Assembly (NCBI GenBank): GCA_963740355.1
Contig: CAVUDW010000003.1
Span: 1,568,001 to 1,632,000 of the forward strand
Reading direction: 5' to 3'
DNA from: an uncultured Gemmatimonadaceae bacterium
Lineage (GTDB): Bacteria; Gemmatimonadota; Gemmatimonadetes; Gemmatimonadales; Gemmatimonadaceae
DNA: 64,000 nucleotides
The notes under the pieces were generated by a model. That model ran no database searches and was not told the origin of the DNA. It saw nothing but the letters and a program-made list of their open reading frames with translations. A program made the position numbers and the translations under genes. Position 1 is the first letter of the stretch. Every line of letters begins with the position of its first letter. This document shows positions 42,138 through 56,494 of this stretch, one piece after another.

Positions 42138-42230
42138 CGGCGGGACGGACGACTTTCGCGGGTGGTGGCAGTTCCGACCGAATGGCGCCGCCACCACCCC
42201 AACTCATCAACGTCTCACCTCGCACCGCCC

Positions 42231-43021
42231 ATGCCTCACGACACGGCCCTCATTGCGACCATCGCCGCGGGACTTGGGCTGGCCTTCCTGTTCGGCCTCG
42301 TAGCGACTCGATACAAACTCCCACCCATCCTCGGCTACCTGCTGGCCGGCGTCGCAGTGGGCCCCTTTACACCAGGCTTCGTCGCCGACTCCGGACTGTC
42401 GTCGCAGCTTGCCGAGATCGGCGTCATTCTGCTGATGTTCGGCGTCGGCCTGCACTTCTCGATCAGCGATCTGCTGGCGGTGCGCCGGATCGCGGTTCCC
42501 GGCGCGATCGGACTGATGGTGATCGCGACGGCCTGCGGCGCGGTGCTCACGCAATTCTGGGGATGGTCGTGGGGGTCCGGAATCGTGTTCGGCCTCTGTC
42601 TGTCCGTCGCCAGCACGGTGGTGCTGCTGCGCGCCTTCGAGGATCGTGGCATCCTTGATTCAGCCGATGGCCGCCTCGCAGTTGGGTGGCTGATCGTGGA
42701 AGACCTGGTCACCGTGCTCGCCCTCGTGCTGTTGCCGGCACTCTCGCCGGCGCTTGGCGCGCCCACCTCGAGCACACGCGGCTCGTGATCGTGGCTGCCC
42801 CCGACGCATTTCAGGCGCGCGCGATTTTGGCCCTCTGCTTCCAGCTCAACCCCGGCGTCGAGGTGCTGGTGCGGACGCACAGCGACGAGGAGCGCGAGTT
42901 CCTCGAGTCGATGGGGGCGGCCAAGGCGCTGGTCGGCGAGCGCGAGCTGGCCATCAGCCTCACCCGCGAGGCGCTGCGCCGCTACGGCGTGGCGCCAGAC
43001 ATGGAAGCCGAATTCCGGTGA
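42231..43021 (+). pseudogene. ybaL: Internally deleted Kef-type K+/H+ antiporter (YbaL-like)
   Basis: N-terminus MPHDT.LIATIA..GL...GYLLAG...GPFTPG...WLIVED stops at 42788; TrkA-N tail (HLEH.RL.IVA.PD.FQ...RTHS...GE.ELA) follows in another frame; the middle is missing. Confidence 0.85.
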
Positions 43022-43149
43022 CAGTGCACGGAATTCCCGAAATCCGGTGACAGTGCACGGAATTCGAATTCGATGACGCGGCACGAAATCGCGTCAGTAG
43101 CGGTGGCAGCGCACGAGCTCGATGGGAATGCGTGCACTGTCACCGGATT
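43011..43149. repeat. REP/BIME-like cluster (CCGGTGACAGTGCACG)
   Basis: Direct copies at 43011-43036 and 43041-43065, inverted copy at 43124-43149, degenerate copy near 43101. Confidence 0.85.
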
Positions 43150-43231
43150 GGCGGCGGTATCATCGTCCTGTGCACGCTGCCACCTTTCGGCCACTAACTC
43201 GCAGATCCACGCGCCTCAGGAGCCTCACCCG

Positions 43232-44149
43232 ATGAAGTCGTCCGTTGTCGTGAAATTGCCGCTCGCCGGCGCACTGATCCTTGCGATCGCCGCTTGCGGC
43301 GGCTCGCCCAAGCCCGCAGCTGATTCGACGGCGGCCAGCGCCGCGCCGGCTGCAACGGCGGCCGGCGACTTCCGCGCGCCGCTCGGAGTCCAGCTGTGGA
43401 GCTTTCGCACGCTCTCGAAGGATGTCCCGGCGATGCTGTCCACGGTCAGTGGCATGGGCTTCACACACGTCGAGACTGCAGGCCTCTATGGCAAGTCGCG
43501 CACGGAGTTCGCCGAGGCGCTGCGCACAGCCGGGCTGAAGGCCACGTCGATGCATGTGGGCTATGAGGACCTGAAGAACCATCCCGACAGCGTGATCGCC
43601 GACGCCAAGGCGCTCGGTGCGGAGTACGTCGGCATTGCCTGGTACCCGCATGACTCGACCGGCTTCACACCCGCCAATGCCAAGCAAGCGGTGCAGGACT
43701 TCAACGCGTTCGGGAAGACATTGAAGGCGGCGGGGCTCAAGTTCTTCTATCACAACCACGGCTACGAGCCGGTGCCGTTTGGTGACGGCACGTTGCTCGA
43801 CGTGATCATCAAGGAGACCGACCCGGCGCTGGTCAGCTTCGAGATGGATGTGCTGTGGACGTGGCTCCCCGGCCAGGACCCCGTGGGCCTGATCGCCAAG
43901 TATCCAGGTCGCTTCAAGCTGATGCACATCAAGGACATGAAGCCCGGCGTGCCGCGCGGCTCACTCGCCGGCGGCGTTGCTGACTCGCTCAAGGCGCCGA
44001 TCGGTGCTGGACAGGTGGACTGGCCTGCACTGCTGCAGGCTGCAGAGAAGGACGGGTTCGTGGAGTTCTACGTCGAGGACGAGACCACCGATCCGGTCAA
44101 GAATGCGCCGCAGAGCATCGCGTATCTGCGGGGCTTGAAGTACAAGTAG
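43232..44149 (+). CDS. Sugar phosphate isomerase/epimerase (xylose-isomerase-like TIM barrel) lipoprotein
   Basis: Lipobox IAAC; GVQLWS.R, YHNH.YE, FEMD..W, H.KD, YVE. Confidence 0.9.
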   Translation: MKSSVVVKLPLAGALILAIAACGGSPKPAADSTAASAAPAATAAGDFRAPLGVQLWSFRTLSKDVPAMLSTVSGMGFTHVETAGLYGKSRTEFAEALRTAGLKATSMHVGYEDLKNHPDSVIADAKALGAEYVGIAWYPHDSTGFTPANAKQAVQDFNAFGKTLKAAGLKFFYHNHGYEPVPFGDGTLLDVIIKETDPALVSFEMDVLWTWLPGQDPVGLIAKYPGRFKLMHIKDMKPGVPRGSLAGGVADSLKAPIGAGQVDWPALLQAAEKDGFVEFYVEDETTDPVKNAPQSIAYLRGLKYK

Positions 44150-44256
44150 TGCGTTCCGCCGCGAGCCGCTTCGGCGTTCCGCGGCGCGGTCGGATCACGC
44201 GGTCCGAGCTGCTGTCGCGCTTACAGTCCTGACGCAGCCACGCACGCACGAAACGA

Positions 44257-44288
44257 CGAACGGCGCCCGCAAACTCGGGCGCCGTTCG
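44257..44288. terminator. Hairpin / bidirectional terminator
   Basis: CGAACGGCGCCCG-caaact-CGGGCGCCGTTCG between convergent genes. Confidence 0.75.
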
Positions 44289-44373
44289 CATTTCTCCGTA
44301 TTGCTACGTCCAGCCGGTCGCGCACGGTCGTGCGCGTGGCGTGTGCGTCGCGAGCCGTTCCCCTACGTCTAGG

Positions 44374-44928
44374 CTAGAGCGCAGCCGCAAGCGCCGTCAT
44401 GCCGCGTTCAAAGCCGTCATGCGGACCACTCGCTCCAAACATGCCGGACTGTTCGAGCACCACGTAGCCGTGCAGGAACGCCCACACGGCGACGGCGCCG
44501 GCGGTGTCATCGACTTTCGCGGTGCAGTCACCAACCAGTTGCAGGAGCTGATTCCACAGTGCCTTGCGCGCATCCAGATGACCCGCTGCGTATGGCGCCA
44601 CAAGCATGCTGTATCGTGCTGGCGAGGTACGCGCGAAGCTGAGGTAGGCGTCTGCTGCCGTGCGAAGATCGTCACGCGCGCCACGAGCCACGTCCTTTCG
44701 CCGGGCGACTGCGGCTTCAATCGACGAGCGGAGCGACTCAGCGACCTGTTCCGCGATCATCGCCTCCAACGTCGCCAGATCGCCGACGTGTTTGTACAGC
44801 GAGGCCGGGCGCACGCTCAGTGACTCAGCGAGTGCACGCATGCCCAATGAGTCGCGCCCCTGTGTGTCGAGGATGGAGAGCGCCGCGTCGATGATCGCCG
44901 GCGTGGAGAGTTTGGAGGGGTAGGCCAT
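44374..44928 (-). CDS. TetR/AcrR regulator
   Basis: LGMRALAESLSVRPASLYKHV HTH; WAFLHGYV.LE. Confidence 0.92.
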   Translation of the reverse strand: MAYPSKLSTPAIIDAALSILDTQGRDSLGMRALAESLSVRPASLYKHVGDLATLEAMIAEQVAESLRSSIEAAVARRKDVARGARDDLRTAADAYLSFARTSPARYSMLVAPYAAGHLDARKALWNQLLQLVGDCTAKVDDTAGAVAVWAFLHGYVVLEQSGMFGASGPHDGFERGMTALAAAL

Positions 44929-44931
44929 AGA

Positions 44932-45001
44932 GAACACTGTACGTCTTGACATGATCCAAGGCAAGGAGTACAGTGTTCGCCATACAAGGCGTACAGTGTT
45001 C
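44932..45001. promoter_or_regulatory. Three TetR operators overlapping a sigma-70 promoter
   Basis: GAACACTGTAC at 44932 and GTACAGTGTTC at 44968 and 44991; TTGACA(44946)-17 bp-TACAGT(44969). Confidence 0.8.
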
Positions 45002-45022
45002 ACCTTACCAAGGAGCGTGCAT

Positions 45023-45481
45023 ATGAGCACTCCAGATCGCGTTCACGACACCGCGCCACGCAGCGCATTCACTGGCGCCGCAGAGTCCGACCGGGCGTCC
45101 ACGCCAAGCGCTGCGACCGGCGGCGTCCGACTCGTGCTTCAGGCTGAAGGGTTCGCGGTACTTCTGCTGGCCGCCGTGCTGTACCGTCAGGGCGGGCACG
45201 GCTGGGGACTGTTCGCTGCACTGTTCCTGGCACCGGACGTCAGCTTCGTCGCGTACCTCGCAGGACCGCGGGCGGGGGCCACCGCCTACAATGCCTTCCA
45301 CAGCTACGTCGGTCCGATCGCGTTGCTACTCGTCGCGCTCACTGTTCCCAGCGCCGGCGTCATTCCGTTTGTGCACATCTGGGCTGCGCACATCGGTTTC
45401 GACCGCCTGATGCGATACGGCCTGAAGTATCCTGGCGATTTCCATCACACGCATCTGGGCTCGAAGCGGCGGACAGTGTGA
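45023..45481 (+). CDS. DUF4260 family membrane protein
   Basis: LFLAPD.S..AY..GP..GA..YN.FH.Y, W.AHIGFDR...YGLKY...F..THLG. Confidence 0.9.
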   Translation: MSTPDRVHDTAPRSAFTGAAESDRASTPSAATGGVRLVLQAEGFAVLLLAAVLYRQGGHGWGLFAALFLAPDVSFVAYLAGPRAGATAYNAFHSYVGPIALLLVALTVPSAGVIPFVHIWAAHIGFDRLMRYGLKYPGDFHHTHLGSKRRTV

Positions 45482-45653
45482 CATCGTGTCCCTCGGTCGA
45501 ACGCAGTCGCAAGCGCACAACCCGTAGGCGGCCATGGCCGTACTTTCACTGACTAAGCGGGAGTCAGAAAGAGCATGATAAACTTTGCAAATCGGAGTTG
45601 TTTGTGCAGTCTATCAACTGCCTAGCTTGCCAATTGCTGGCTTTACTATGCTC

Positions 45654-45685
45654 TTGACTGAAGAATATGCATGGTATACCATGCA
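45654..45685 (+). promoter_or_regulatory. Sigma-70 promoter with a perfect 18-bp palindrome
   Basis: TTGACT(45654)-17 bp-TACCAT(45677); TGCATGGTATACCATGCA at 45668-45685. Confidence 0.75.
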
Positions 45686-45741
45686 GACAGCTCTAACCTC
45701 TGACCCGTCCGCTCCGCACCCTCGCACCACCCATCGCTGCC

Positions 45742-46263
45742 ATGCCCGCCCGCGCCGACACACAGTGGCTCCGACTCCGGCAGGCCATCGCCCTCCTTGA
45801 GCCGTGGGAGGGACTACAAACGGCCCGCGCCCCGATTCAGGGGTGGGTGTCGACGATCCGTCGGGCGCTCGGGATGAGCAGCGCGCAGCTCGCGGCGCGG
45901 ATGCGAATCAGTCGGCAGTCGCTCGAGGCGCTCGAGGCACGGGAAGTCACCGGCACAGCGACCGTCGATGCACTTCGCCGCGCCGCTGACGCGCTCGATT
46001 GCGACCTGGTGTACGCACTGGTTCCACGGCACGGGTCGCTCGAGTCTGTGGTCACCGCAAAGGCTCGCCGGGTCGCCGAGCGGCTCGTCGGTCGCGCGGG
46101 ACACACGATGACCCTCGAGCAGCAGACCGTGCCCGTGCGTGAGGCGGAGCACCAGATCGCAGTCCTCACCCGTCGCCTTCTGGCCGAGTGGCCGCGCGGC
46201 CTCTGGGATGAGATCGACGATCCGCCCCCCCGCGACGAACGCGCGACAGGCGACGTGGCGTGA
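45742..46263 (+). CDS. Mobile mystery protein A (XRE-type HTH)
   Basis: P..GWV..IR.ALGMS..QLA.R, E..G...L..AA.ALDC.LVYA.VP, HTM.LE.Q, LWD. Confidence 0.9.
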   Translation: MPARADTQWLRLRQAIALLEPWEGLQTARAPIQGWVSTIRRALGMSSAQLAARMRISRQSLEALEAREVTGTATVDALRRAADALDCDLVYALVPRHGSLESVVTAKARRVAERLVGRAGHTMTLEQQTVPVREAEHQIAVLTRRLLAEWPRGLWDEIDDPPPRDERATGDVA

Positions 46264-46904
46264 CGGCGCCGGACGGGCCGGCGACGCCGCCACAGAGGCG
46301 GGGCGCCTTCGCCGTCGGCGCTCACATCGCCGGCGCCACGCCGGTTGATCCCGACGAGGCGGCGGACCTCATTCCCCCCGGCATCGAGACGGTCGAGCAA
46401 CTCAATGCCTTGGAGCAGACGAACATCTTGTCTGCGACGGAGTGGGCGCTGCGTCATCGGCGGCGTCACACGCCAGCGGCGGTGCTCAGCGAAGCGTTCC
46501 TGTTCGACCTGCATCGTCGCATGTTCGACGAAACCTGGCGATGGGCGGGTAAGACTCGCCGCACCGACAAGAACATCGGCGTCCACTGGCCGACCATTCG
46601 CGTCGCGCTGCGCGAGCGCGTCAGGGATGCGCAGTTGTGGCTGACCGAATCGGTATTCTCGCTCGACGAGGTGGCCGTGCGTCTACACCACGGCATCGTG
46701 CTGGTCCATCCCTTCCCGAATGGGAACGGCCGGTGGAGCCGGTTGGTGGCTGACACCTTCATGCATGCACACCGACGTGCACCGTTCGACTGGGGCGCGA
46801 GGAACCTCACGAGCGCAGGCGAGGCACGTGCGGCGTACCTCGCCGCTCTCCGGGCAGCAGATCACGGCGACTTTGCGCCGATCCTGAAATTCGCGCGATC
46901 GTAA
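46260..46904 (+). CDS. Mobile mystery protein B (Fic domain)
   Basis: GATP.DPDE...LIP, LN..EQ.NI, LH.RMF...W.WAG..R...KNIGV, HPFPNGNGRWSR; GTGA coupling with protein A. Confidence 0.92.
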   Translation: MTAPDGPATPPQRRGAFAVGAHIAGATPVDPDEAADLIPPGIETVEQLNALEQTNILSATEWALRHRRRHTPAAVLSEAFLFDLHRRMFDETWRWAGKTRRTDKNIGVHWPTIRVALRERVRDAQLWLTESVFSLDEVAVRLHHGIVLVHPFPNGNGRWSRLVADTFMHAHRRAPFDWGARNLTSAGEARAAYLAALRAADHGDFAPILKFARS

Positions 46905-47110
46905 CTGCTGCGGACCGAGCGCGCTGCTCGAAGCTCAGGTGCGTGGCCGACCGCGCGCGGCAACAACGCGGACCAGGACACTGGCATTGCCCGTTCGTGG
47001 TTAGAGGCTGATCGGCCGAGGGCATCGCGCGCTCGCGCGTCGATCAGTGCCGAGGGTAGCTCAAAACCAAACGACCGCCAGCGCCTCTTCGGCACCGACG
47101 GTCGTTCAGC

Positions 47111-47152
47111 TATTGCCCCTCCTGGGCTCGAACCAGGACTCTTCTGATCCAG
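47111..47152 (-). repeat. att-like copy of the tRNA-Gln 3' half (42 bp)
   Basis: Identical to 54696-54737 and 50634-50675. Confidence 0.95.
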
Positions 47153-47332
47153 GAGGTGGCTAAACGGAAGACATGTGTGCCTGCTGCATCGGCTCCCAAT
47201 GCGATCTCGCTTCGGTGCGCAAGATAAGCCAGACGAGCAGAGTGCATTCCGTGGCGCGCGAGCGGCACGAGTCAACAATCCAGTTCTTCGGGACCTCTCA
47301 GGTTCACACGCTGTCACCCAATGCTGCGTGAT

Positions 47333-48748
47333 TCACGGCGCGAGCCGCACCGTGTCCAGGCTGATGACGTCGGGAATTGAGCGGTCGCCGCCGGCGATCA
47401 CCCGCGCGCAGACTACGACTTCGCGCACGCCACAGGTCACGCGATGACCTACCGCGATCCCATCGAGGTGAACGCGGCCAAGACGGCCCCCGGACGTGAC
47501 ACTGCGCCATGCACCGCCATCAGCAGACTCTCCGTCGAGCGAGGGTACTCTGGAGCGCACCTCGGACGTCGTACCGGGCAACGTGGCGTCCGGCGTCACC
47601 GCGCCGTACATCGACCCATTGCTTGCCTGCGTGATCACGACACGCGCGCCGGTACCGTCCGGAGCACGGAGCGTTACGACGTTCGTGTCACTGGAGTACG
47701 AGGCGTTCGAACCCGTCACGCTCGTATAGCCGCCAACGGCGCGAAGCACGCTGCTGTCGGCGGCGTTCCGCAACAGCTGGTACGGCGTGACCGTGAACGG
47801 CACTCCGGGGAAGATCGGCGTGACGCGCCTCCCTGTGGAGCACATTACGACGCCGCTCGCGGTGAGGCCGCAGGTCACCAGTCCGTTTTCGTCGTTGAGC
47901 AGGCGCACGATGTTTGAATCACTCGGTATCGGCAACCACGTGCGGTTTGCGAAAACGTACCCGCCACCGGTCTCACTCCCGAGCACACCCTTCCAGAGCG
48001 CGCCGCCCGCAGTGCGCCCCACTGAGCCACGGAACTCCACGAACGGTGGGTGCGTGATGTCGTTTGGCACAGTCGAGTCGGGACCGAAGCCCGTCCAGAA
48101 TGCATCGGGGCCGACTCCATTCCAGCACGCAGTGTTGCCATCGGTGAGCAGGGCGCACGCGCCCACGAGGCTAGCCGACAGCGACCGTACGGGTGCCGAG
48201 AACCGCAACCAGCGCGGCGTGGGCTGGAACTGCCCCGGACCGACGCAGGCGACGCGACCGCCCTGCTGGAAACACACTGACTCGGCGCCTGACGTCACGA
48301 CCGTGTCGGCCACCAGCGGTATGCCGCGACGAGCGAGCGTGAATCGACGCGTGAATTCCACCAGGCCGTCACCCCAGTATGTGCCGAGCGACAACACCTG
48401 CGCTGGCGAATCACTCGGCAGCCAGAGCACGCGTACGAGGCCCGTTGCCGTGTCGGCAGCAATCGATAGCGCGCGCCGTTCCCAGTCGCGCGATCGGAGC
48501 CAGCCGGTTGTCGCACTGCTGCGTGAGAGCCGCCAGAACTCTCGCACGCGCTGCCCCGACGCATCCAGCAACTCGAACAGCAACGTGTCAGGCACCGGCG
48601 TGAGGGGCTCCGCCACGCGGATCGTCCCAGGGGAGACGAGGCGCAACGTGTACGCGGAGTTGCCAGTCTGCGGCTCGCTCGCGGTTTCGCCGCATGCGGT
48701 GAATGCGACAATCGCTGCGGCCAGAACCATACGGGCTGAATAGCGCAT
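47333..48748 (-). CDS. Hypothetical lipoprotein with degenerate RCC1-like blades
   Basis: Lipobox FTAC; ACALLTDGNTACW and TCGLTASGVVMC motifs. Confidence 0.6.
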   Translation of the reverse strand: MRYSARMVLAAAIVAFTACGETASEPQTGNSAYTLRLVSPGTIRVAEPLTPVPDTLLFELLDASGQRVREFWRLSRSSATTGWLRSRDWERRALSIAADTATGLVRVLWLPSDSPAQVLSLGTYWGDGLVEFTRRFTLARRGIPLVADTVVTSGAESVCFQQGGRVACVGPGQFQPTPRWLRFSAPVRSLSASLVGACALLTDGNTACWNGVGPDAFWTGFGPDSTVPNDITHPPFVEFRGSVGRTAGGALWKGVLGSETGGGYVFANRTWLPIPSDSNIVRLLNDENGLVTCGLTASGVVMCSTGRRVTPIFPGVPFTVTPYQLLRNAADSSVLRAVGGYTSVTGSNASYSSDTNVVTLRAPDGTGARVVITQASNGSMYGAVTPDATLPGTTSEVRSRVPSLDGESADGGAWRSVTSGGRLGRVHLDGIAVGHRVTCGVREVVVCARVIAGGDRSIPDVISLDTVRLAP

Positions 48749-48967
48749 GATGATAATATACCGTCGCACTGGCCTCGAGGTCACGCCAGCCGCGCTACGG
48801 CCCGGCTCAAGAACAACACGCTTCCCCGTGCGCTGTGATATGTCGAGCGAGATGCTTCAACGAGGCCCTTGTCACGAAAGAGCCAGAAAGCGAGTTGCCC
48901 TCCTTGCACGCGCTCAGGCTCGCCGAGCAGACCTGCAGAGTTTCGCGCCGCGCTGCACATTGACCCG

Positions 48968-50371
48968 ATGATCGTCTTTCCAAATCTCTTCCCGTCGCGC
49001 GATCGCCGACGGGCACACTGGGCGCTGGCGATTGCGATCGTCACCGCGATGTCCCCTGCCCCGCCGGCCGGCGCGCAGACGGGCAGCGATAGCGGGCGGC
49101 TGGACCAACGCATCGATGTCGTGACGCCACTCGCGCCTGAACTGGCCGCCTTCGGCAGCCATTCCGTCGGCGTCCGCACCATCACCGTCACCGACCGCAA
49201 TCGCCCCGACGTCGTTCACACCAGACCCGGCGAAGCCACGGCGCGCAGCGACCGATCGCTCACACTCGAGGTGTGGTATCCAGCGCAGCCCGCGCGCGCG
49301 CCGGTCCTCGGCACGTACCGCGCCATCATGCGTGATCCCACGGTCACCGTGACGCTGATTGGCCGCGCGCAACGAGACGCGATGCCAGTTGCGGCGGGCG
49401 GCCCGTTTCCGCTGGTGATCATCTCGCACGGCTACCCCGGCAACCGGTTCCTGCTCAGTCACCTGGGAGAGAACCTGGCCAGCAAAGGGTACGTCGTTGT
49501 GTCGATCGATCACACCGGAAGCACGTACGACGATCTGCAGGCGTTCGGCAGCACGCTCTATCATCGCCCGTACGATCAGTTGTTCGTGCTGAATGAGATG
49601 GCGCGGCTGGGTGCCGCGCAGTCCGGCAGCTTCCTGGCCGGGCACGTCGACGCCGGTCGCACCGGCATCATCGGCTATTCGATGGGTGGATACGGCGCGG
49701 TGAACGTGATCGGCGGCGGATTCCGCGCGGCAGCGGCCACGATGCCCGGTGCACCGCCCAATCGCCTGCTGCTGGAGCGCAGCGCCGACAACGCGGCCTA
49801 TCGTGAACGCGGCGGTGATGCGCGTATCAAGGCCGCGGTGGCCATCGGCCCGTGGGGCCTGCCGGCCGGTGTCTGGGATTCCGCCGGGCTGGCCGGCATT
49901 CGAACGCCTACCCTGTTCGTTGCCGGCAGCGCCGACGAGGTCTCAGGCTACGAGTCCGGGACCCGCGCCATCTTCCGCGGTGCCGTGAATGCCGATCGCT
50001 ACCTGCTGACATTTCTCGGCGCGGGCCACAACGCGGGTGCGCCGATTCCCGCGCCCGCGGAGAGCTACTCGTGGTCCGACTCACTGAAGTCGTATCCCTT
50101 CACGCACTATGCCGACCCAGTCTGGGACACCCGGCGCATGAACAACATCCTTGCACACTTCGTGACCGCGCATTTCGACGTGCAACTGAAGGGAGACAGC
50201 ACGCGACTGCCGTACATGCAGGTGGTACCGGCCGGGAAGGATGCCGTGTGGGCCATCGATCGCGCGGGCACGCCGCAACCCACGCATACGTACTGGAAAG
50301 GGTTCAAGCGAGGCACGGCGACGGGATTGATGCTGGAACACGAGGCCTCCGGAGAGCGTGCACGCCGGTAG
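48968..50371 (+). CDS. Secreted alpha/beta hydrolase (dienelactone hydrolase / PAF-AH-like)
   Basis: GVRT, R.L.LEVWYP, PLVIISHG.PG, GYSMGG, G.ADEV, GAGHN. Confidence 0.88.
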   Translation: MIVFPNLFPSRDRRRAHWALAIAIVTAMSPAPPAGAQTGSDSGRLDQRIDVVTPLAPELAAFGSHSVGVRTITVTDRNRPDVVHTRPGEATARSDRSLTLEVWYPAQPARAPVLGTYRAIMRDPTVTVTLIGRAQRDAMPVAAGGPFPLVIISHGYPGNRFLLSHLGENLASKGYVVVSIDHTGSTYDDLQAFGSTLYHRPYDQLFVLNEMARLGAAQSGSFLAGHVDAGRTGIIGYSMGGYGAVNVIGGGFRAAAATMPGAPPNRLLLERSADNAAYRERGGDARIKAAVAIGPWGLPAGVWDSAGLAGIRTPTLFVAGSADEVSGYESGTRAIFRGAVNADRYLLTFLGAGHNAGAPIPAPAESYSWSDSLKSYPFTHYADPVWDTRRMNNILAHFVTAHFDVQLKGDSTRLPYMQVVPAGKDAVWAIDRAGTPQPTHTYWKGFKRGTATGLMLEHEASGERARR

Positions 50372-50633
50372 GTGCGTCACTCGCTGACAGGTTGGCCTGG
50401 TGGTGACGGTAGAGCCGTGCGACGCCGACCGAGACCGATGCGACGAGCGGCGAACACGCGGCGAAGCGAGCGATGACGCGGCCATCGAAGCGGTCTGCCC
50501 TGCTGGCGCAGGCGTAGGGTTGGCGGTTATGCCTCGCCTATGACGCTGGCCATGCATCGCATGACCAGCTGAGACCAGAGTCATAAAACAAAAAGGCTGG
50601 CGGCGCGAAGTGCTTGCGCCACCAGTCTTTCCG

Positions 50634-50675
50634 TATTGCCCCTCCTGGGCTCGAACCAGGACTCTTCTGATCCAG
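50634..50675 (-). repeat. att-like copy of the tRNA-Gln 3' half
   Basis: 42-bp core; identity with the tRNA locus extends to 50 bp (50627-50676 vs 54689-54738). Confidence 0.95.
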
Positions 50676-51128
50676 AGCGTGGCTGAACAGAAAAGGTGTG
50701 TGACTGGCTTCGGCTCCCGATGCTATCGGACGGAGGTGAGCAGGCGAGCCAAATCGGCCCATCCCCGCCAGCGCGCAGACTTCGCCGTCGACGTCCAAGC
50801 GGGATCGCTGTACACTGGTCATTCTCGACTTGGCGGAGACACAAGCACAGCGAGAACGCAATCGTCAGCGTTTCGGTCTCATTCTTGGGCTCTGTGAACC
50901 ACCAGAAGCCCCAGTGGTTCGTGAGCGCGCTGCTCCGCCGCTGGGACGCTCGCCCCAATCTGCAGGTCCGGCAACACGACGGCACAACCCGTCTCCGACA
51001 CAATCCGATGCATCGGGTCAGATCACGGCGAACTCGCACCGTCACCCCCACGGACGATCTCGCGGCTGGGTCCACCTCGGTCCGGCAGCGCGAGACTAGA
51101 ATTCGCGCATGTCCCGCGATCTCGTCGC

Positions 51129-52310
51129 ATGCTGATCCACGTCGACCTCGTCGTCGTGTACATGATCATCTGTATCGTGCAGGGCGCCACCGCTGCCGGC
51201 ATGCTGCTCGCGCACGGCCGGACACGCCCTTCCGCGCGCTGGACGGCGCTCTGGCTTCTGGCCGTGACACTGCAGGTCATCGACTACACCCTGAGCCGAA
51301 GTGGGACGTACTATCGTCACCACGAGCTGTACTTCCTGCCTCTTTTCTACACGCTGGCGCTGGGCCCCCTGCTGTTCGGTTCCGTTCGCAGCGCACGGAC
51401 GACGGAGGCTTCGCTGGGACCCGTGCACTTCATCCCAGTGGTCGTCCAGGCGGCGTTCTACGTGATCATGTGCGTGCAGCCGGTCGAGACGAAGGCGCAG
51501 GTGTGGATGTCGCTGCACAAGCCCGTCACGCGGTGGCTGGAGTATTACGGCGCGCTGGTGTCCCTCGGCCTCTACCTGGCCGCAGCGTGGCGACTAGTCG
51601 GTGGCGACGAACCGGCTGCGCGGCGCCTGCGGCAGGGTGGCAGCGTGACCGCTGTCTTTCTCGGCGCGTCCGCCATCGACCCGCTCGTGAACGCGCACTA
51701 CCTGCCCGTCGGCGCGCCGCGCTTCTGGCTGTTTTCCCTCGGGCTGCCGCTGCTCGGCGGCGCGGTGGCACTCTGGGCGATGTTCGGTGCCCAGGTCCAG
51801 CAGGCCGCCGGACTGCTCGGGCTCCGTGAGCCGTCGATGCCGTCGGATCCGGACCCCGTCGCACCCGCTGCCGCCGGAATCAATGAAGCCCGCCGGGCAC
51901 CCGATCCAGCGCTGGTGGCGCGTCTCCGTACGGCGCTCGAGCGCGACCGAGTGTACCGCGATTCCGAACTCACCCTCGATGCCTTGGCGGCGCGCGTCGG
52001 GGTGTCAGCGAACGTCGCCTCGCAGGCACTGAATGCGGGGCTGGGCGGGTCATTCAGCGAACTGATCAACCGGTTTCGCCTCGCCGATGTCATGACGGCG
52101 CTGGATCGGCAGGATGTTCGGTCACACAGTGTGCTCGCGGTGGCGTTTGCGGCGGGCTTCAACTCGAAGTCCACCTTCAATCGCGTCTTCAGGGCGCACA
52201 CGGGGATGACGCCGCGCGAGTACCGGAACCGACCGCCGGCAGGGCGCGACGCCGGCCCCGGCGACACGGCACGTCCCGCGACAGGTCCCGACTTCCACGC
52301 GAGCGCGTGA
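51129..52310 (+). CDS. Membrane-anchored AraC family regulator
   Basis: About 7 TM N-terminus; YRDSELTL..LA, SQALN...G.SF..LIN.FR, AGFNSKSTFNRVFR..TG.TP.EY. Confidence 0.92.
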   Translation: MLIHVDLVVVYMIICIVQGATAAGMLLAHGRTRPSARWTALWLLAVTLQVIDYTLSRSGTYYRHHELYFLPLFYTLALGPLLFGSVRSARTTEASLGPVHFIPVVVQAAFYVIMCVQPVETKAQVWMSLHKPVTRWLEYYGALVSLGLYLAAAWRLVGGDEPAARRLRQGGSVTAVFLGASAIDPLVNAHYLPVGAPRFWLFSLGLPLLGGAVALWAMFGAQVQQAAGLLGLREPSMPSDPDPVAPAAAGINEARRAPDPALVARLRTALERDRVYRDSELTLDALAARVGVSANVASQALNAGLGGSFSELINRFRLADVMTALDRQDVRSHSVLAVAFAAGFNSKSTFNRVFRAHTGMTPREYRNRPPAGRDAGPGDTARPATGPDFHASA

Positions 52311-52388
52311 GCACGTCCCACCCTACACATTGGGGCGCAAACGCCGCAGCACACGCGCACTGTTGGGCATGACCCCTCCACCGCCACC

Positions 52389-54299
52389 ATGCCCATGCTC
52401 CAAATGATGCACCCATGTCGCCGGACGATCACGCTCCTGACCGCCGGCACAGCCATTGTCGCCAGCGGTAGTGCCACGCCGCTCGCCGCGCAGCGAGCTG
52501 ACCTCGCGGCGGACATCCGCCGCGTCGAAACCAGCCTCGCCCCGAACGTCCCCGTGGCCAGCATGCCGGGCTGGCGACTCGAAGACCGCATGCGCGTGCA
52601 TGGGGTGCCGGGCGTCAGCATCGCCGTGATCCGGAACTATCGGGTCGTGTGGGCCAAGGGCTACGGTGTGGCCGATTCGGCCACGAAGCGTCGTGTGACA
52701 CCGTTCACCGTGTTTTCGGCCGGGTCGATCTCGAAGTTCGCCACGGCCATCGTTGCACTGCGCTTGGCGGCGGAACGCCGCGTCTCGCTCGACGCCCCGA
52801 TCAACACGATCCTCACGCACTGGAAACTGCCCGAGTCGGAGCGCACGGCCGCGCGCCCCGTCACCCTCGCGCTGCTGTTGAGTCATCGGGGTGGCACGAG
52901 CCAGTCGTCCTACTTCGGGTTTGCGCCACGCTCTGCGGGTGACCGGACGCCGTACCCGTCCGTAGTAGACGTTCTGCAGGGGGCGCCGGGCACGGAGAGC
53001 CGACCCGTCGTGGTGAACCAGCCGGTCGGGGAAGGGTTTGCGTACTCCGGCGGCGGGTACATGGTGGCTCAGCTGGCGCTCACTGACGCCACCGGCCGCG
53101 CGCCCGACGCGTACGCCGCGCTGGCGGCTGAAACGGTATTCACGCCACTCGGCATGCGTTCGAGCACCTTCGCGCAGCCGCTGCCGCCGTCGTTCGCGTC
53201 GCGCGCGGCGTGGGCCTACTCCGACGCGCCGTGGTTCCTCGGCATGCCGTACGTCTACCCGCAGCAGGCGCCGGCCGGCCTGTACGCGACCCCCACCGAT
53301 CTCGCGCAACTCGTCATCGAGGTGCAGCAGGCGTATCGCGGCCGGGGACGGCTCCTCGATTCGAGCGACGTGCATCGCATGCTGACGCCGCAGGCGGATG
53401 TCTCGCTCGGCGCGTACCGGGAGCAGATCGGCCTCGGCGCATTCCTGTTCCAGCGGGCCGACCGTTCAGGCGATGCGACGCGCTACTTCGAGCACATGGG
53501 CGTCAACGCCGGGTTCATCGCCTACGCCATGGGCAGCGTCACCGGTGGGAACGGCGTCGTCATCATGATGAACAACGACGGGGGCGCGGCGGAACTCGGA
53601 CGTGAGATCCGGCGCGCTGTCGCCAAGGCGTACGGCTGGCCGGGGTTCCTGCTGGATCCGCTGCGGCCTGTGCGCGGCGCATCGACCCTACTCGCGGACA
53701 TAGAGGGCCGCTACCAGCGAGGCCCGGACGCGGTGCTGCAGTTTCGTCGGGGACGTGGCGAGTTCGCGGCATACCTCGAGGAAGTTATCTCGGAGGGCCT
53801 CGGCGTCGGCGCGCCGATTCTTGCCGTGCCCATCGGGCATGATTCCATCGGCTTCACTGACTTTCCCGGCACCGCAGTCGTGCAGCGCGACAGCGTCGGG
53901 CGCGTCATCGGCCTGCGCATCCCGTATGCAGACCGTCCGATCCCGAAGCTGACGCCGGACCACCAGCTGCCGGGCGAGCTGTTGCGCGCGGGGCGATGGC
54001 CGGAGGCGGAGGCGGCCTACCGCGAACTCGCGCTGGACGAGTCCCGCATCACCTACATGGCGTACACACTGCTACGACGCCGACCGGCGAAGGACCATGA
54101 CCTGCAGTCGGCGCGCGTGTTGCTCACCGTGGCCGATGCGCAGCACCCCGCGTCAGCCGTCGTCCAGGTGCGCTGGGCCGAGTATCACCTGCTGCGGCAT
54201 GACACGACGTCGGCCATTGCCGCGTATCGCGTCGCACAGGCCCGTGACTCGAGCGACGCGAGCATCCGCGACGCGATCCATCGGCTCGGCAAACGCTGA
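52389..54299 (+). CDS. Secreted serine hydrolase (class C beta-lactamase-like) with TPR-like C-terminus
   Basis: VPGVSIAV, F..GSISK (SxxK), LLSH.GG, F.YSGGGY, PLGM, HMG.N.GF; start uncertain. Confidence 0.88.
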   Translation: MPMLQMMHPCRRTITLLTAGTAIVASGSATPLAAQRADLAADIRRVETSLAPNVPVASMPGWRLEDRMRVHGVPGVSIAVIRNYRVVWAKGYGVADSATKRRVTPFTVFSAGSISKFATAIVALRLAAERRVSLDAPINTILTHWKLPESERTAARPVTLALLLSHRGGTSQSSYFGFAPRSAGDRTPYPSVVDVLQGAPGTESRPVVVNQPVGEGFAYSGGGYMVAQLALTDATGRAPDAYAALAAETVFTPLGMRSSTFAQPLPPSFASRAAWAYSDAPWFLGMPYVYPQQAPAGLYATPTDLAQLVIEVQQAYRGRGRLLDSSDVHRMLTPQADVSLGAYREQIGLGAFLFQRADRSGDATRYFEHMGVNAGFIAYAMGSVTGGNGVVIMMNNDGGAAELGREIRRAVAKAYGWPGFLLDPLRPVRGASTLLADIEGRYQRGPDAVLQFRRGRGEFAAYLEEVISEGLGVGAPILAVPIGHDSIGFTDFPGTAVVQRDSVGRVIGLRIPYADRPIPKLTPDHQLPGELLRAGRWPEAEAAYRELALDESRITYMAYTLLRRRPAKDHDLQSARVLLTVADAQHPASAVVQVRWAEYHLLRHDTTSAIAAYRVAQARDSSDASIRDAIHRLGKR

Positions 54300-54697
54300 G
54301 ACGAGCGCGACGCAGTTCCGACCCCATCAGCGCTTGGAGCACCGCTGAAAGATCTCCAACGCCTGCGGCGTCCCGGGGGCATCGATCTACCAATGGGCCC
54401 AGTGCAGGACAGGCACCGCCGTCGATCTGCTGTCAGAACACTTTCGATGTCCCTTTGTCAGAGAACTTCGTGATCGACCATGCGACACTCCAGGGTCACG
54501 GCGGCGGGAACGCCATGACGGAGCACACGACGATTCGACGACCCGAGCCCGTTCCTGCCGTGCGGTGCTGCAGCAGGCGAATAAGCTGACGCACGGTGGC
54601 GACGACTGCGGTCACACAGGTTGTGACTCTTCATGATCGCAGCCGCAAACAGAAACCCCGGCGGCGCCTAAGTGCAGGCACCGCCGGGCTTTCCGTA

Positions 54698-54770
54698 TTG
54701 CCCCTCCTGGGCTCGAACCAGGACTCTTCTGATCCAGAATCAGACATGTTGCCAGTTACACCAAGGGGCA
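54698..54770 (-). tRNA. tRNA-Gln(CTG)
   Basis: TGCCCCTTGGTGTAACTGGCAACATGTCTGATTCTGGATCAGAAGAGTCCTGGTTCGAGCCCAGGAGGGGCAA forms a full cloverleaf; CCA not encoded. Confidence 0.97.
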
Positions 54771-54930
54771 CCACAACCCGACCACCTCGCGGCCGCCGGA
54801 TTCATCAAAACTAGACCCCACAACACCCGGCTTCAAGGGGACACGACAGTTCCACCACAATCCACTGCGATCCGTCACAATCCCGGCCTGCTGAGTCGGA
54901 CACCCGCCCTGCCCGGCTAACTTGCGAGCA

Positions 54931-56268
54931 GTGACCCGTCTTCTCCGATACACCCGACCCGCCGCCTTCCTCCTCCTCGGCGCTTTCCTCACTACCGCCT
55001 GCCGGCCCGGATGGGACGCCCTCGGCGCTTCCCCACCGCAGGCACAGGCCAACGGCGTCACCTTTGCCGAAGCCCTGCACCGCCGCTACCTCGGCGTCGA
55101 GCGGGCACCGTTCTACGCCGCGGCCCGCGTCAAACTCGGCAAACGCGCCCTCTCGCCATCCGGTGTGTTCGATGACACCACCGCGTGGACGTCGCGACCG
55201 GATGCGAAGAACCGCTTCCTGATGGCGGAAGGGGTCTCGACCTCGGATGGCCGCTACCGCTTCACGCCTCGCGCCAACGCACCGTTCCCTGATCGACTCG
55301 CCGATGCACGACATCTCACGCAACTCACCAAGCTCGCCAACGACGGCGAATACGAGTGGCGGACGACCGTGGACTTCGCGCTCGGCACACTGACACCAAC
55401 CGATTGGGGCAACGGCTTTCGCGCGCTGCTCGGGAGCGCCGAAGGACGCAGCGATGGTGACCTGCGCGCCGATGTGCGCAGCACGATGCCGCGCACGACT
55501 GCCGCACTCGGCCGCATGTTTTCGCTCGACACGCTGCATGCGCAACGGCTTTCCGACGGATCGACGGCAGTGACGATCGTGACTGACGTCCACCCGGAAT
55601 GGCTGAAGAAGGAATTCCCGCTGTACTCGAAGTTCATCGAGAAATACGTCGGCCCCGCGGCGTACCACATCGTGTTGCGCGATGCACGCGGCTCGCGATG
55701 GGTCGACGTCAACGCGACCGATCGCGGGCTGACGCTGAAGCTGCGTGTGCTGCACGGCGGCCTGGTGCCGCTGGACGGCACCACACAGCCGATGCCCGAC
55801 ACGCTGCGGCTGACGATGGACGCGAGCACGAAGTATTCGATCTTCACGATCGGCATGCGCGGCATGCAGGGCACGGTGGTGTTCCTGCGCAGCGCGAATG
55901 AGCGGGGCTGGGCGCTCCGGTTCGACAAGGCACCCGAATGGCAGCTACCGCTCTTCACCGGATCGATGCTGCGCACGCCATTGCGACGGCCCTTCGATCA
56001 GGGTGGCATCGTGGGCAAGGTGTCGTTCCGGCTCGGTGCGGGCGGCCAGACCTACATCACGCGAGACTTTCGCGTTGCGGTGCAGGAGTCGGCCGTCACC
56101 CGCTTTCTGGGCGGGTTGAGCGGGTCGGCCTTCAGCGAGTTCGATGGGCCAGCGGAGAAGGAAGAAAATCGCTTCAATGCCGAGCTATTCCAGGCGATGC
56201 GCGATGACCTGCGCGGGCTGCGCTACGGCGCGGGATCTCTGGTCAGTCCGTTGCGCGTAGGACCGTGA
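54931..56268 (+). CDS. Hypothetical lipoprotein
   Basis: Lipobox LTTAC; long ORF with typical codon usage; start 54922 or 54931. Confidence 0.7.
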   Translation: MTRLLRYTRPAAFLLLGAFLTTACRPGWDALGASPPQAQANGVTFAEALHRRYLGVERAPFYAAARVKLGKRALSPSGVFDDTTAWTSRPDAKNRFLMAEGVSTSDGRYRFTPRANAPFPDRLADARHLTQLTKLANDGEYEWRTTVDFALGTLTPTDWGNGFRALLGSAEGRSDGDLRADVRSTMPRTTAALGRMFSLDTLHAQRLSDGSTAVTIVTDVHPEWLKKEFPLYSKFIEKYVGPAAYHIVLRDARGSRWVDVNATDRGLTLKLRVLHGGLVPLDGTTQPMPDTLRLTMDASTKYSIFTIGMRGMQGTVVFLRSANERGWALRFDKAPEWQLPLFTGSMLRTPLRRPFDQGGIVGKVSFRLGAGGQTYITRDFRVAVQESAVTRFLGGLSGSAFSEFDGPAEKEENRFNAELFQAMRDDLRGLRYGAGSLVSPLRVGP

Positions 56269-56300
56269 CGTGGACGCCGGCGACACGACCGGATACGACG

Positions 56301-56333
56301 AGGGGCGACAAATCCATTGGATTCATCGCCCCT
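56301..56333. terminator. Hairpin between the convergent lipoprotein gene and tRNA-Ala
   Basis: AGGGGCGA...TCGCCCCT stem with inner AATCC/GGATT. Confidence 0.55.
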
Positions 56334-56421
56334 GCAATCAGCTGGGCCACGCGCGCTGTCATTGGAACTCTCCGTCCTACCGAACAGCGGCGGGCATATT
56401 TGCTCTGTCAATCACACAATG

Positions 56422-56494
56422 TGGAGCTGAGGGGAATCGAACCCCTGACCTCTGCAGTGCGATTGCAGCGCTCTACCAACTGAGCTACAGCCCC
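56422..56494 (-). tRNA. tRNA-Ala(CGC)
   Basis: GGGGCTGTAGCTCAGTTGGTAGAGCGCTGCAATCGCACTGCAGAGGTCAGGGGTTCGATTCCCCTCAGCTCCA; G3:U70 alanine identity pair. Confidence 0.97.

Follow-up and report, generated by a model that had tools for sequence, protein, structure and literature searches.

Small integrase-less units in tandem at the tRNA-Gln(CTG) gene of a Gemmatimonadaceae bacterium and its relatives

Introduction

How can genes pile up at one chromosomal site when the packets that contain them do not each bring an enzyme for insertion? The question is raised by a locus in a 64,000-nt stretch of the genome of an uncultured Gemmatimonadaceae bacterium (GenBank assembly GCA_963740355.1, contig CAVUDW010000003.1, positions 1,568,001 to 1,632,000; this whole stretch is referred to as the window, and coordinates given without a contig name are positions within it), where two small units lie in tandem against the 3′ half of a tRNA-Gln(CTG) gene. 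An earlier note, drawn from the letters of the window, had described the units as non-autonomous cassettes inserted serially by a recombinase supplied in trans, and had likened the whole to an integron. The analysis reported here leads us to favor, as a fairly probable account, an array built by tandem accretion, in which small non-autonomous mini-elements, similar to cis-mobilizable elements (CIMEs), collect at the 3′ half of the genome's one tRNA-Gln(CTG) gene.

Tandem integrase-less islands at tRNA and transfer-messenger RNA (tmRNA) genes are already known, and are usually viewed as debris or as passengers of a neighboring integrative and conjugative element (ICE). Unusual here are the miniature size and the number of the units, the conserved arm beside the repeats, the use of a single tRNA gene family-wide, and the sharing of units between species without a resident integrase. 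In the Gemmatimonadaceae, an abundant and little-studied family of soils and sediments, one tRNA gene acts as the depot in which very small units collect in rows, and each insertion would rewrite half of an essential tRNA gene together with its terminator. If the units are indeed mobilized in trans, they would represent a second route, besides integrons, for collecting single genes at a fixed chromosomal site. For annotation, partial tRNA-Gln copies in Gemmatimonadaceae genomes can be read as marks of cassette boundaries.

Results

The intact tRNA-Gln(CTG) gene (54698-54770, minus strand), called by ARAGORN in agreement with Rfam, is the sole copy in the genome. A 41-nt core that reaches from the tRNA 3′ end up to the first base of the anticodon has three exact matches in the window (47112-47152, 50635-50675 and 54697-54737), always in the same orientation, and no match to it was found in any of 100 shuffles. 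Once the T in front of it is counted, the exact repeat measures 42 nt and lies at 47111, 50634 and 54696, precisely as the earlier note had stated; the spacings of the repeats give the lengths of the units, 3523 bp for unit 2 and 4062 bp for unit 1. The repeat begins at tRNA position 34, the first anticodon base, and the copied part does start in the anticodon loop. Copy A (47111..47152, minus strand) comprises tRNA positions 34-73 plus 2 nt, and copy B is identical to the gene region over 50 nt (50627-50676); in most cassettes of the genus, identity extends 3 nt more, to tRNA position 31. Rfam called no tRNA at the two partial copies, and the 5.45-Mb, five-contig genome contains no copies of the repeat beyond these three.

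Each unit is laid out as an arm of ~32 nt, the cargo, and a terminator hairpin of its own followed by the tRNA 3′ half. Alignment of the three repeat copies revealed a strong hairpin on the left of each, different in every case; on the tRNA strand, the hairpin directly follows the (partial) tRNA 3′ end and leads into a U-run. The folding energies of these hairpins range from -28 to -41 kcal/mol (z -5 to -6.7), with values of -38.1 kcal/mol (z -6.7) at copy A (47065-47111), -27.8 kcal/mol (z -5.0) at copy B (50588-50634) and -41 kcal/mol (z -6.6) at the tRNA gene (54649-54696), where a terminator scan was also positive (14 pairs plus U-run). The last of these belongs to the right end of unit 1 (54590..54696, minus strand), a type-b end consisting of RTGAC repeats and the hairpin that now terminates the tRNA gene. 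Copy B and its terminator-like hairpin make up the right end of unit 2 (50588..50675, minus strand; repeat at 50634-50675), and here, too, RTGAC repeats lie 5′ of the hairpin, as is common to other type-b ends. Across genomes the hairpins fall into about four sequence classes, and the class adjacent to the tRNA gene varies: it is b in G000, G010, G322, G257, G402 and G132, c in G280, d in G301 and G083, and a in G201. The G201 array, moreover, mixes the T-stem variants CCTGG/CCAGG and CCAGG/CCTGG. Both the differences in hairpin class and the mixed T-stems would follow if every inserted element came with a 3′ half and a terminator of its own.

The sequences that flank copies A and B on the right, the side facing away from the tRNA 3′ end, resemble each other for ~50 nt. 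Alignment of these copies, and of 35 junctions from 11 arrays, identified arm A (47153..47205) and arm B (50676..50730), neither assigned a strand, as diverged versions of an arm found genus-wide. The genus consensus, AATGTGGCTGA.CgGAagaaatGtgTGAC.Gg, is itself an imperfect direct repeat. Over the 35 non-tRNA junctions of the 11 genus arrays, mean ungapped pairwise identity is 0.68 at positions +1..+20 and 0.44 at +21..+40, and past +40 it equals background (0.27-0.30). The arm pattern was found at 25 sites in 11 of 20 genus genomes, 20 of them on array-bearing contigs; the other five are on different, mostly short contigs, and at two of these (G010:C32 and G388:C469) a core adjoins the arm. 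A role of the arm as a promoter or small RNA was considered and rejected, given that the adjoining genes have no consistent orientation and that the arm has no Rfam match.

Integrase-bearing units have yet other arms. A second and unrelated family of ~70 nt, AACTCCGGCAAGTTG..CAAA..CAAGTTG..TGCCGGAGTT, with internal direct and inverted repeats, marks small integrase-less units at tRNA-Gln in G221, G048 and G062.

To place the locus among its relatives, 401 Gemmatimonadaceae genomes were surveyed with the 41-nt core, allowing up to 2 mismatches. The core was matched in 170 genomes, and at least two copies were present in 30 (29 of 400 when the unpublished G134 is set aside), including 11 of the 15 genomes of the genus to which the window belongs. 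After removal of one 155-nt assembly-gap artefact (G342), the array set consisted of 19 arrays from 18 genomes, with 47 units. The largest numbers of copies with up to 6 mismatches are found in G010 (8), G280 (7) and G201 (5), and the smallest arrays of the genus have one unit (G402) or two (G083). The order tRNA-Ala(CGC), ~450-aa open reading frame (ORF), tRNA-Gln, array is kept in most of the relatives examined, and the relatives differ in cassette number, content and order. Pfam searches of 171 ORFs from relatives identified toxin-antitoxin pairs (HepT/MNT, RelE/HTH and HTH/Fic), dehydrogenases, hydrolases, peptidases, regulators, a kinase, a multicopper oxidase and two insertion sequence (IS) transposases as cargo. 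A 25-nt sequence spanning the core-arm junction located 28 further loci in metagenome contigs, with up to 5 copies in 8 kb, and had no exact match in viral contigs.

Five single-copy loci of other genera were considered as empty sites but are not proven ones for this genus: they have no second repeat within ~8 kb, and they also lack the flanking AP_endonuc_2 gene that limits the array in the window. In two of the single-copy loci of other genera (L068:3100-8800 and L069:4900-7600), several kilobases after tRNA-Gln are devoid of ORFs with host-like codon-position GC; judging from its composition, this ORF-poor DNA may be foreign, without a recognizable second repeat.

Units are shared between species as discrete entities, with full-length equivalents that include arm and hairpin. 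Their ranks differ: G010_u1, the seventh unit from the tRNA, corresponds to G280_u6, the first (92% identity); G201_u1, the fourth, to G257_u2, the first (95%); and G010_u3, the fifth, to G301b_u2, the first (93%). As a yardstick we used the adjacent 1.65-kb chromosomal flank, a single flank whose evolutionary rate is unknown. Shared units versus flank gave 98-99% versus 77% for G010-G201, 95% versus 74% for G201-G257, 92% versus 76% for G010-G280, 90.5% versus 76% for G280-G322, and 93% versus 86% for G010-G301b; four of the five unit pairs compared are 90-99% identical, with flanks at 73-77%. Since unit identity lies above flank identity, these sequence comparisons show that integrase-less units were exchanged horizontally once the species had separated.

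Such exchange might proceed without any integrase. Arrays founded by site-specific insertion could now be shuffled in a RecA-dependent manner, for example after DNA uptake, with repeats, arms, hairpins and tRNA flank acting as portable homology. The repeats are perfect over 42-50 nt and have a conserved arm and hairpin classes on either side, most array genomes contain no cognate integrase, and a whole block of adjacent cassettes common to G010 and G201 at 98-99% would suit block transfer. However, the stretches of homology are short, the ~32-nt arm with its internal direct repeat beside every repeat is left unexplained, and integrase-bearing elements with the same ends exist. We therefore regard RecA-dependent shuffling as a distinctly unlikely source of the exchange. 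Traces of excision were also sought in Logan contigs from four metagenome runs, which are short pieces, mostly from relatives. Two contig joints in X5 (50687 to 48896 and 50704 to 45723) were rejected as circles, since their 38-47-nt sides lie within the triplicated repeat.

The earlier note had recognized no integrase, relaxase or phage gene in the units, and every search agreed: Pfam annotation of the 21 ORFs at 39-62 kb contained none, a six-frame scan with PF00589 had no match in the array region, and tblastn searches of the window with 6 integrases (E<=1) and 4 further proteins (E<=0.01) gave no integrase match. No recombinase gene and no detectable remnant of one, such as the integrase remnants that the earlier note had proposed to look for, lies in either unit, within the limit that a recombinase of an unknown family would escape these searches. 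In the genome as a whole, the six-frame PF00589 scan gave four matches, all outside the array region: a XerD-like and a XerC-like recombinase, an integron-type integrase and one P4-like integrase. A six-frame search with PF13356 likewise placed no integrase in the units, and one with PF00239 found no serine recombinase in the genome. The P4-like integrase belongs to a 15.9-kb island at tRNA-Arg(CCT) (C2:2356847-2372842) and serves another site, because the island is bounded by a 55-nt direct repeat of tRNA-Arg(CCT). It was rejected as a helper for the array, as it does not lie beside a Gln core and the arm of its island has none of the arm motifs.

Some further observations were made on these loci. 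The tRNA-Arg(CCT) island carries its P4-like integrase (444 aa) beside the distal repeat, together with a P4-family primase and a 2075-aa ORF. The integron-type integrase (TIGR02249, 386 bits, cut-off 265; C3:2343145-2344245) stands beside an arsenite methyltransferase gene on the same strand, on the contig that also bears the array and ~720 kb away from it, and ARAGORN called an odd 83-nt 'tRNA-Thr(ggt)' ~3.4 kb from this integrase. The tmRNA gene (tag ANNNLALAA) is called twice, at C2:2543434-2543790 near a contig end and at C5:28-384 on a 29-kb contig; contigs C2 and C5 probably overlap or join at the tmRNA.

Integrase genes are present in some relatives. A P4-like integrase (Arm-DNA-bind_3 plus Phage_integrase) was found in 5 of the 47 units, which are the largest (7.8-15.4 kb); the remaining 42 (0.7-6.8 kb) have no integrase. 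All five integrases come from other genera, are 43-66% mutually identical and occupy the tRNA-distal end, with the start codon beside the distal repeat in every instance. When one of them was used to search genomes of the window's genus, matches of at most 39% identity turned up in 6 of 20. Not one of these adjoins a Gln core, and the P4-like integrases of the genus were accordingly rejected as helpers.

Within the genus, a different protein is linked to the site. In G132, which has only two cores, 70.8 kb apart, a 794-aa protein ends ~125 nt from the tRNA 3′ end. It scores 26.7 bits against PF00589, for which the cut-off is 27.1, the pattern R...HxxR...W...Y can be read in its sequence, and a 417-aa relative in G149, which itself exceeds the cut-off and ends ~80 nt before a repeat, shares 25% identity with it. 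Homologues 90-93% identical to this putative recombinase adjoin the core in G230 and G359, bringing the count to 3 of 20 genus genomes; the window genome has no recombinase of this type. The ends of the G132 element connect it with the small units: ~110 nt 3′ of the putative recombinase gene align with the ends of units 1 and 2 in the window and with the tRNA-side ends in G402, G257 and G322, and the distal junction starts with the arm box AATGTGGCTGA. The gene itself can be followed through a series of truncations. It is full-length in G132, G230 and G359; two metagenome loci (L042 and L062) match only residues 586-629, where the available DNA ends, and stop codons close the frame upstream (5′-truncated); two others (L047 and L053) have only residues 728-786 left; and the window retains no part of it. 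Fragments of the G149-type gene likewise lie in or beside the arrays of G221, G035 and G120. From this truncation series in relatives it follows that integrase-less units arise by deletion.

At its distal end, the G132 element has a gene immediately after the arm for a protein of ~600-675 aa without any family match; counterparts 86-90% identical to it exist in G359 and on a metagenome contig (the three loci are L030:5073-7100, L012:3942-5959 and L040:880-2685). The C-terminus of the ~675-aa form reads like that of a PD-(D/E)xK nuclease. The protein (G132, G359 and L040) was considered as a recombinase and rejected, having no family match and this PD-(D/E)xK-like C-terminus.

Deletion might be the whole history. 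If each unit were an island that had lost its own integrase by deletion and was never moved again, the differences between genomes would reflect independent insertions and differential loss. The integrase-bearing units and truncated integrase genes of relatives fit such a course, as does the erosion visible in the window, where one repeat is broken (44299-44303) and the HTH-Fic cassette has lost its arm and left repeat; the repeats inside the block shared by G010 and G201 have been lost differentially, and the window genome has no helper. Pure decay has difficulty, by contrast, with an integrase-less unit that keeps identical boundaries, arm and hairpin while being tRNA-adjacent in one species and 4-7 ranks off elsewhere. 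To account for units at 90-99% identity beside flanks at 73-77%, it would have to suppose either an identical integrase loss each time or a loss before transfer, and neutral remnants would not keep a ~32-nt arm conserved at 35 otherwise unrelated junctions. On balance, we consider decay with no later movement unlikely, and favor deletion followed by further movement of some of the resulting mini-elements.

The array is longer than first described. The earlier note had placed its limit at 47070; homology of an HTH-Fic cassette and a relic repeat junction carry the insertion region on to ~44150, so that it spans ~44150-54697. Its distal limit is an AP_endonuc_2 gene (43073..44149, plus strand; a xylose-isomerase-like TIM barrel by Pfam) that forms a conserved chromosomal flank, 84% and 80% identical to its orthologues in G402 and G083, respectively. 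In both of these genomes, a hairpin, a tRNA-half repeat and an arm are found within 30-70 nt after the AP_endonuc_2 stop codon. At the equivalent place the window has a cassette-end relic, a truncated junction termed DR0 (44225..44303, no strand assigned), in which a TGACGCAGCCAC box and a strong hairpin (44258-44290; -38.3 kcal/mol, z -5.5) are followed by TTTCTCCGTATTGC; alignment with the G402 and G083 junctions shows that the repeat breaks off (44299-44303) after its first ~5 nt. On the proximal side, the flank (54922..56494, no strand assigned) consists of a 448-aa ORF of unknown family (54922-56268, plus strand) and tRNA-Ala(CGC) (56421-56494, minus strand).

Between DR0 and copy A lies a third, distally truncated cassette (45723..47110, plus strand) with HTH_3 (45742-46263) and Fic/DOC (46260-46904) genes, identified by Pfam, and the terminator-like hairpin at 47065-47111 described above. 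It is 83% identical over 1472 nt to G280 u1, a 1.7-kb unit with repeats on both sides; the homology starts abruptly at 45723, and ~320 nt of the unit, arm and left repeat among them, have been lost. The HTH-Fic cassette is repeat-bounded also in G201 and G010. A TetR regulator (44374-45030, minus strand) and a DUF4260 protein (44951-45481, plus strand), both assigned by Pfam, occupy 44374..45481, between the relic DR0 and the truncated HTH-Fic cassette. No repeats survive around this pair, which is most simply taken as the remnant of another cassette.

Genes were called by composition-guided ORF calling together with Pfam, and the two cargo genes that the earlier note had assigned to each unit were recovered. 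Unit 2 encodes a 483-aa ORF (47333..48784, minus strand; GC content at third codon positions (GC3) 0.77) that has no Pfam family and whose N-terminus reads as lipoprotein-like, and an alpha/beta hydrolase (48869..50371, plus strand) of the PETase-like or PAF-AH type (PF12740, 9e-16; PF03403, 5e-10). In unit 1, a 393-aa AraC-type regulator (51129..52310, plus strand) combines a hydrophobic N-terminal half with a C-terminal HTH_18 domain (residues 286-368, 9e-18), and is followed by a 636-aa serine hydrolase of the beta-lactamase/transpeptidase-like family (52389..54299, plus strand; PF00144, 4e-43). Taken together, the cassettes of the window have genes on both strands and regulators of their own inside (AraC, TetR and HTH).

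Two side observations concern the surroundings. The stretch 45540-45700, 5′ of the HTH-Fic pair, is AT-rich, with a site resembling a promoter at 45654-45682 and an 18-nt palindrome at 45668-45685; it coincides with the start of the homology to the G280 cassette. Farther out, a 208-aa ORF (42162-43084) that overlaps other ORFs matches positions 3-161 of a 375-position Na+/H+ exchanger profile and, from the extent of this match, may be a truncated gene.

With up to eight one- or two-gene units in a row and many toxin-antitoxin pairs (HepT/MNT, RelE/HTH and HTH/Fic), the arrays recall chromosomal integrons, and the genome does encode an integron-type integrase. A true platform of this kind would have a resident, dedicated integrase capturing promoterless cassettes, with the tRNA gene as the equivalent of attI. 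Yet no recombinase gene flanks either side at any examined locus, the proximal flank always being the 450-aa ORF and tRNA-Ala and the distal flank ordinary chromosome; the integron integrase is ~720 kb off; and the repeats are tRNA halves and arms rather than attC sites, around cassettes with genes on both strands and their own regulators. We consider a resident platform highly improbable, and the description 'integron-like', if meant as membership of that family, is not supported. Relatives show integrase-bearing versions and a series of integrase truncations, which is why the cassettes are best seen as CIME-like deletion derivatives of ordinary tRNA-integrating elements.

Discussion

Much of the earlier description holds. 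Units that lack any integrase fragment, in arrays whose number, content and order vary among relatives, are foreign, discrete, serially inserted and non-autonomous, and a repeat that starts at position 34 agrees with a crossover in the anticodon loop. As to the recombination chemistry, the helper and mobilization in trans, we infer the following course of events. A circular element would carry an attP composed of hairpin, core and arm, and a tyrosine integrase would exchange strands in the anticodon loop. The incoming element would then supply a new tRNA 3′ half with its terminator, the old half being displaced outward as a direct repeat, and repeated insertion would result in a row of units; unit 1 would accordingly have supplied the 3′ half of the present tRNA-Gln. 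The window units most likely arose by internal deletion from integrase-bearing tRNA-Gln elements, and at least some cassettes were probably relocated later, from one position or species to another, by an integrase acting in trans. Within the genus, the candidate helper would be the atypical tyrosine recombinase of 760-814 aa on the 70.8-kb element. Because the units and the genome have no integrase for the site, the units of the window are now either helper-dependent or fixed. The recombinase in trans proposed in the earlier note stands as a reasonable inference, to which the window genome adds no cognate integrase.

Several observations weigh against an array of mini-elements moved by a helper. 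The window genome has no integrase specific for tRNA-Gln, and the tyrosine integrase that the earlier note had suggested seeking beside the same att core is absent from it. The candidate helper is found in only 3 of 20 genus genomes and was not found in the array-rich G280 and G010 (draft metagenome-assembled genomes of 90% and 100% completeness). Its assignment as a recombinase, made from sequence motifs, is weak: the whole 794-aa protein matches nothing in NCBIfam, residues 380-720 match nothing significant in the PDB, and an AlphaFold model computed from the G132 sequence alone, for its C-terminal 351 residues, is unusable (predicted local distance difference test (pLDDT) score 42). No excised circle was observed, in public runs that contain at most 0.11 of the sampled words of the stretch. 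Comparison of relatives, the check proposed in the earlier note, brought out the expected differences in cassette number and order, and no proven empty site was found among the genus genomes. Furthermore, arms A and B rank among those that depart most from the consensus, and with its truncated distal part the window array may be inert. The motif TGAC[CT][AG]G is common in arms, but was derived from the arms themselves; on the hairpin side its excess is modest (6 in 5.7 kb versus 0.23 per kb). Finally, the integrase fragments found in some relatives are explained just as well by simple decay, and homologous recombination via the 42-50-nt repeats and arms would give identical unit boundaries.

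A bolder version of the accretion account would make the mini-elements a pool traded among the Gemmatimonadaceae in a tRNA-anchored exchange of cassettes, moved in trans by new, large (760-814 aa) tyrosine recombinases that reside on rare big elements. We put this forward tentatively, as a possibility somewhat on the unlikely side. The arrays would in that event be a functional analogue of integrons, the tRNA gene taking the part of attI and the tRNA half plus arm that of attC, an analogy we hold just as tentatively.

In chromosomal integrons the units are small, have one or two genes in most cases, are rich in toxin-antitoxin pairs and are inserted at one site by a tyrosine recombinase, and an array of small toxin-antitoxin-rich units at one site bears a resemblance to them. 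The defining features are different. The window array and the arrays examined have no adjacent intI with attI and a cassette promoter, and their cassettes are not attC-bounded, promoterless and co-oriented; attI/attC, a common promoter and a common orientation are all lacking, and the repeat is a tRNA half. P4-like islands that integrate into tRNA genes reportedly have their crossover in the anticodon loop (Williams 2002), and the repeat described here, starting at position 34, is in keeping with this. Such islands have an integrase with an arm-binding N-terminal domain beside the att site, which is absent from the window units and present in 5 of the 47 units of relatives; by contrast, the only recombinase linked to the site in the window's genus is the atypical 760-814-aa protein, at the tRNA-proximal end. 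An abstract-level literature search, which did not cover subscription journals, found no description of Gemmatimonadaceae arrays of this kind.

Islands of Prochlorococcus form by successive insertions at one tRNA, with newer elements pushing older ones outward and partial tRNAs in between, and include degenerate remnants with fragmented integrases (bioRxiv 10.1101/2020.12.28.424599). Serial integration at one tRNA, with partial tRNA copies separating the elements, is common to these tycheposons and to the present arrays. However, tycheposons are defined by integrases and replication modules of their own, and the window units have neither gene class; the parts of that account consulted describe no rows of intact-ended, integrase-less mini-units with a conserved arm, and phylum and integrase families differ.

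In Dehalococcoides, tandem islands follow the single-copy ssrA gene; they are bounded by 20-bp direct repeats of the ssrA 3′ end, each with a further conserved motif beside it. About half of the islands (15 versus 16) have no integration module, and the authors proposed these as CIMEs (PMC3146451). The target there is the tmRNA, the recombinase a serine recombinase (DsiB), and the islands are much larger and carry rdhA genes (PMC3146451). The present arrays differ in using the anticodon loop of tRNA-Gln as their target, in having tyrosine recombinases as candidate enzymes and in the much smaller size of their units.

The closest match is with CIMEs, which have lost integration and transfer genes, keep attL and attR, and accrete in tandem at tRNA genes; those related to ICESt1 and ICESt3 of Streptococcus form when an integrated element decays and another then inserts at the att site (PMC5704250). 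Like them, the window units stand in tandem at a tRNA 3′ end, have no integration or transfer genes and keep their repeat ends. Units 1 and 2 are bounded by exact 42-nt direct repeats of the target 3′ end; Pfam, six-frame searches and tblastn with 10 proteins found no integrase, excisionase or transfer genes in them; and their att ends are common to an integrase-bearing element of the same specificity, as indicated by the ~110-nt alignment with G132, the arm box and the truncation series. Thus, the window locus has the structure that defines a CIME array and does not have the defining features of an integron. Compared with those CIMEs, the units here are smaller (0.7-4 kb, with one or two genes), stand up to eight in a row, and in most arrays have no functional partner. 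The same unit, moreover, occurs at different ranks and in different species, which suggests that these mini-elements have moved independently and not only together with a neighboring ICE.

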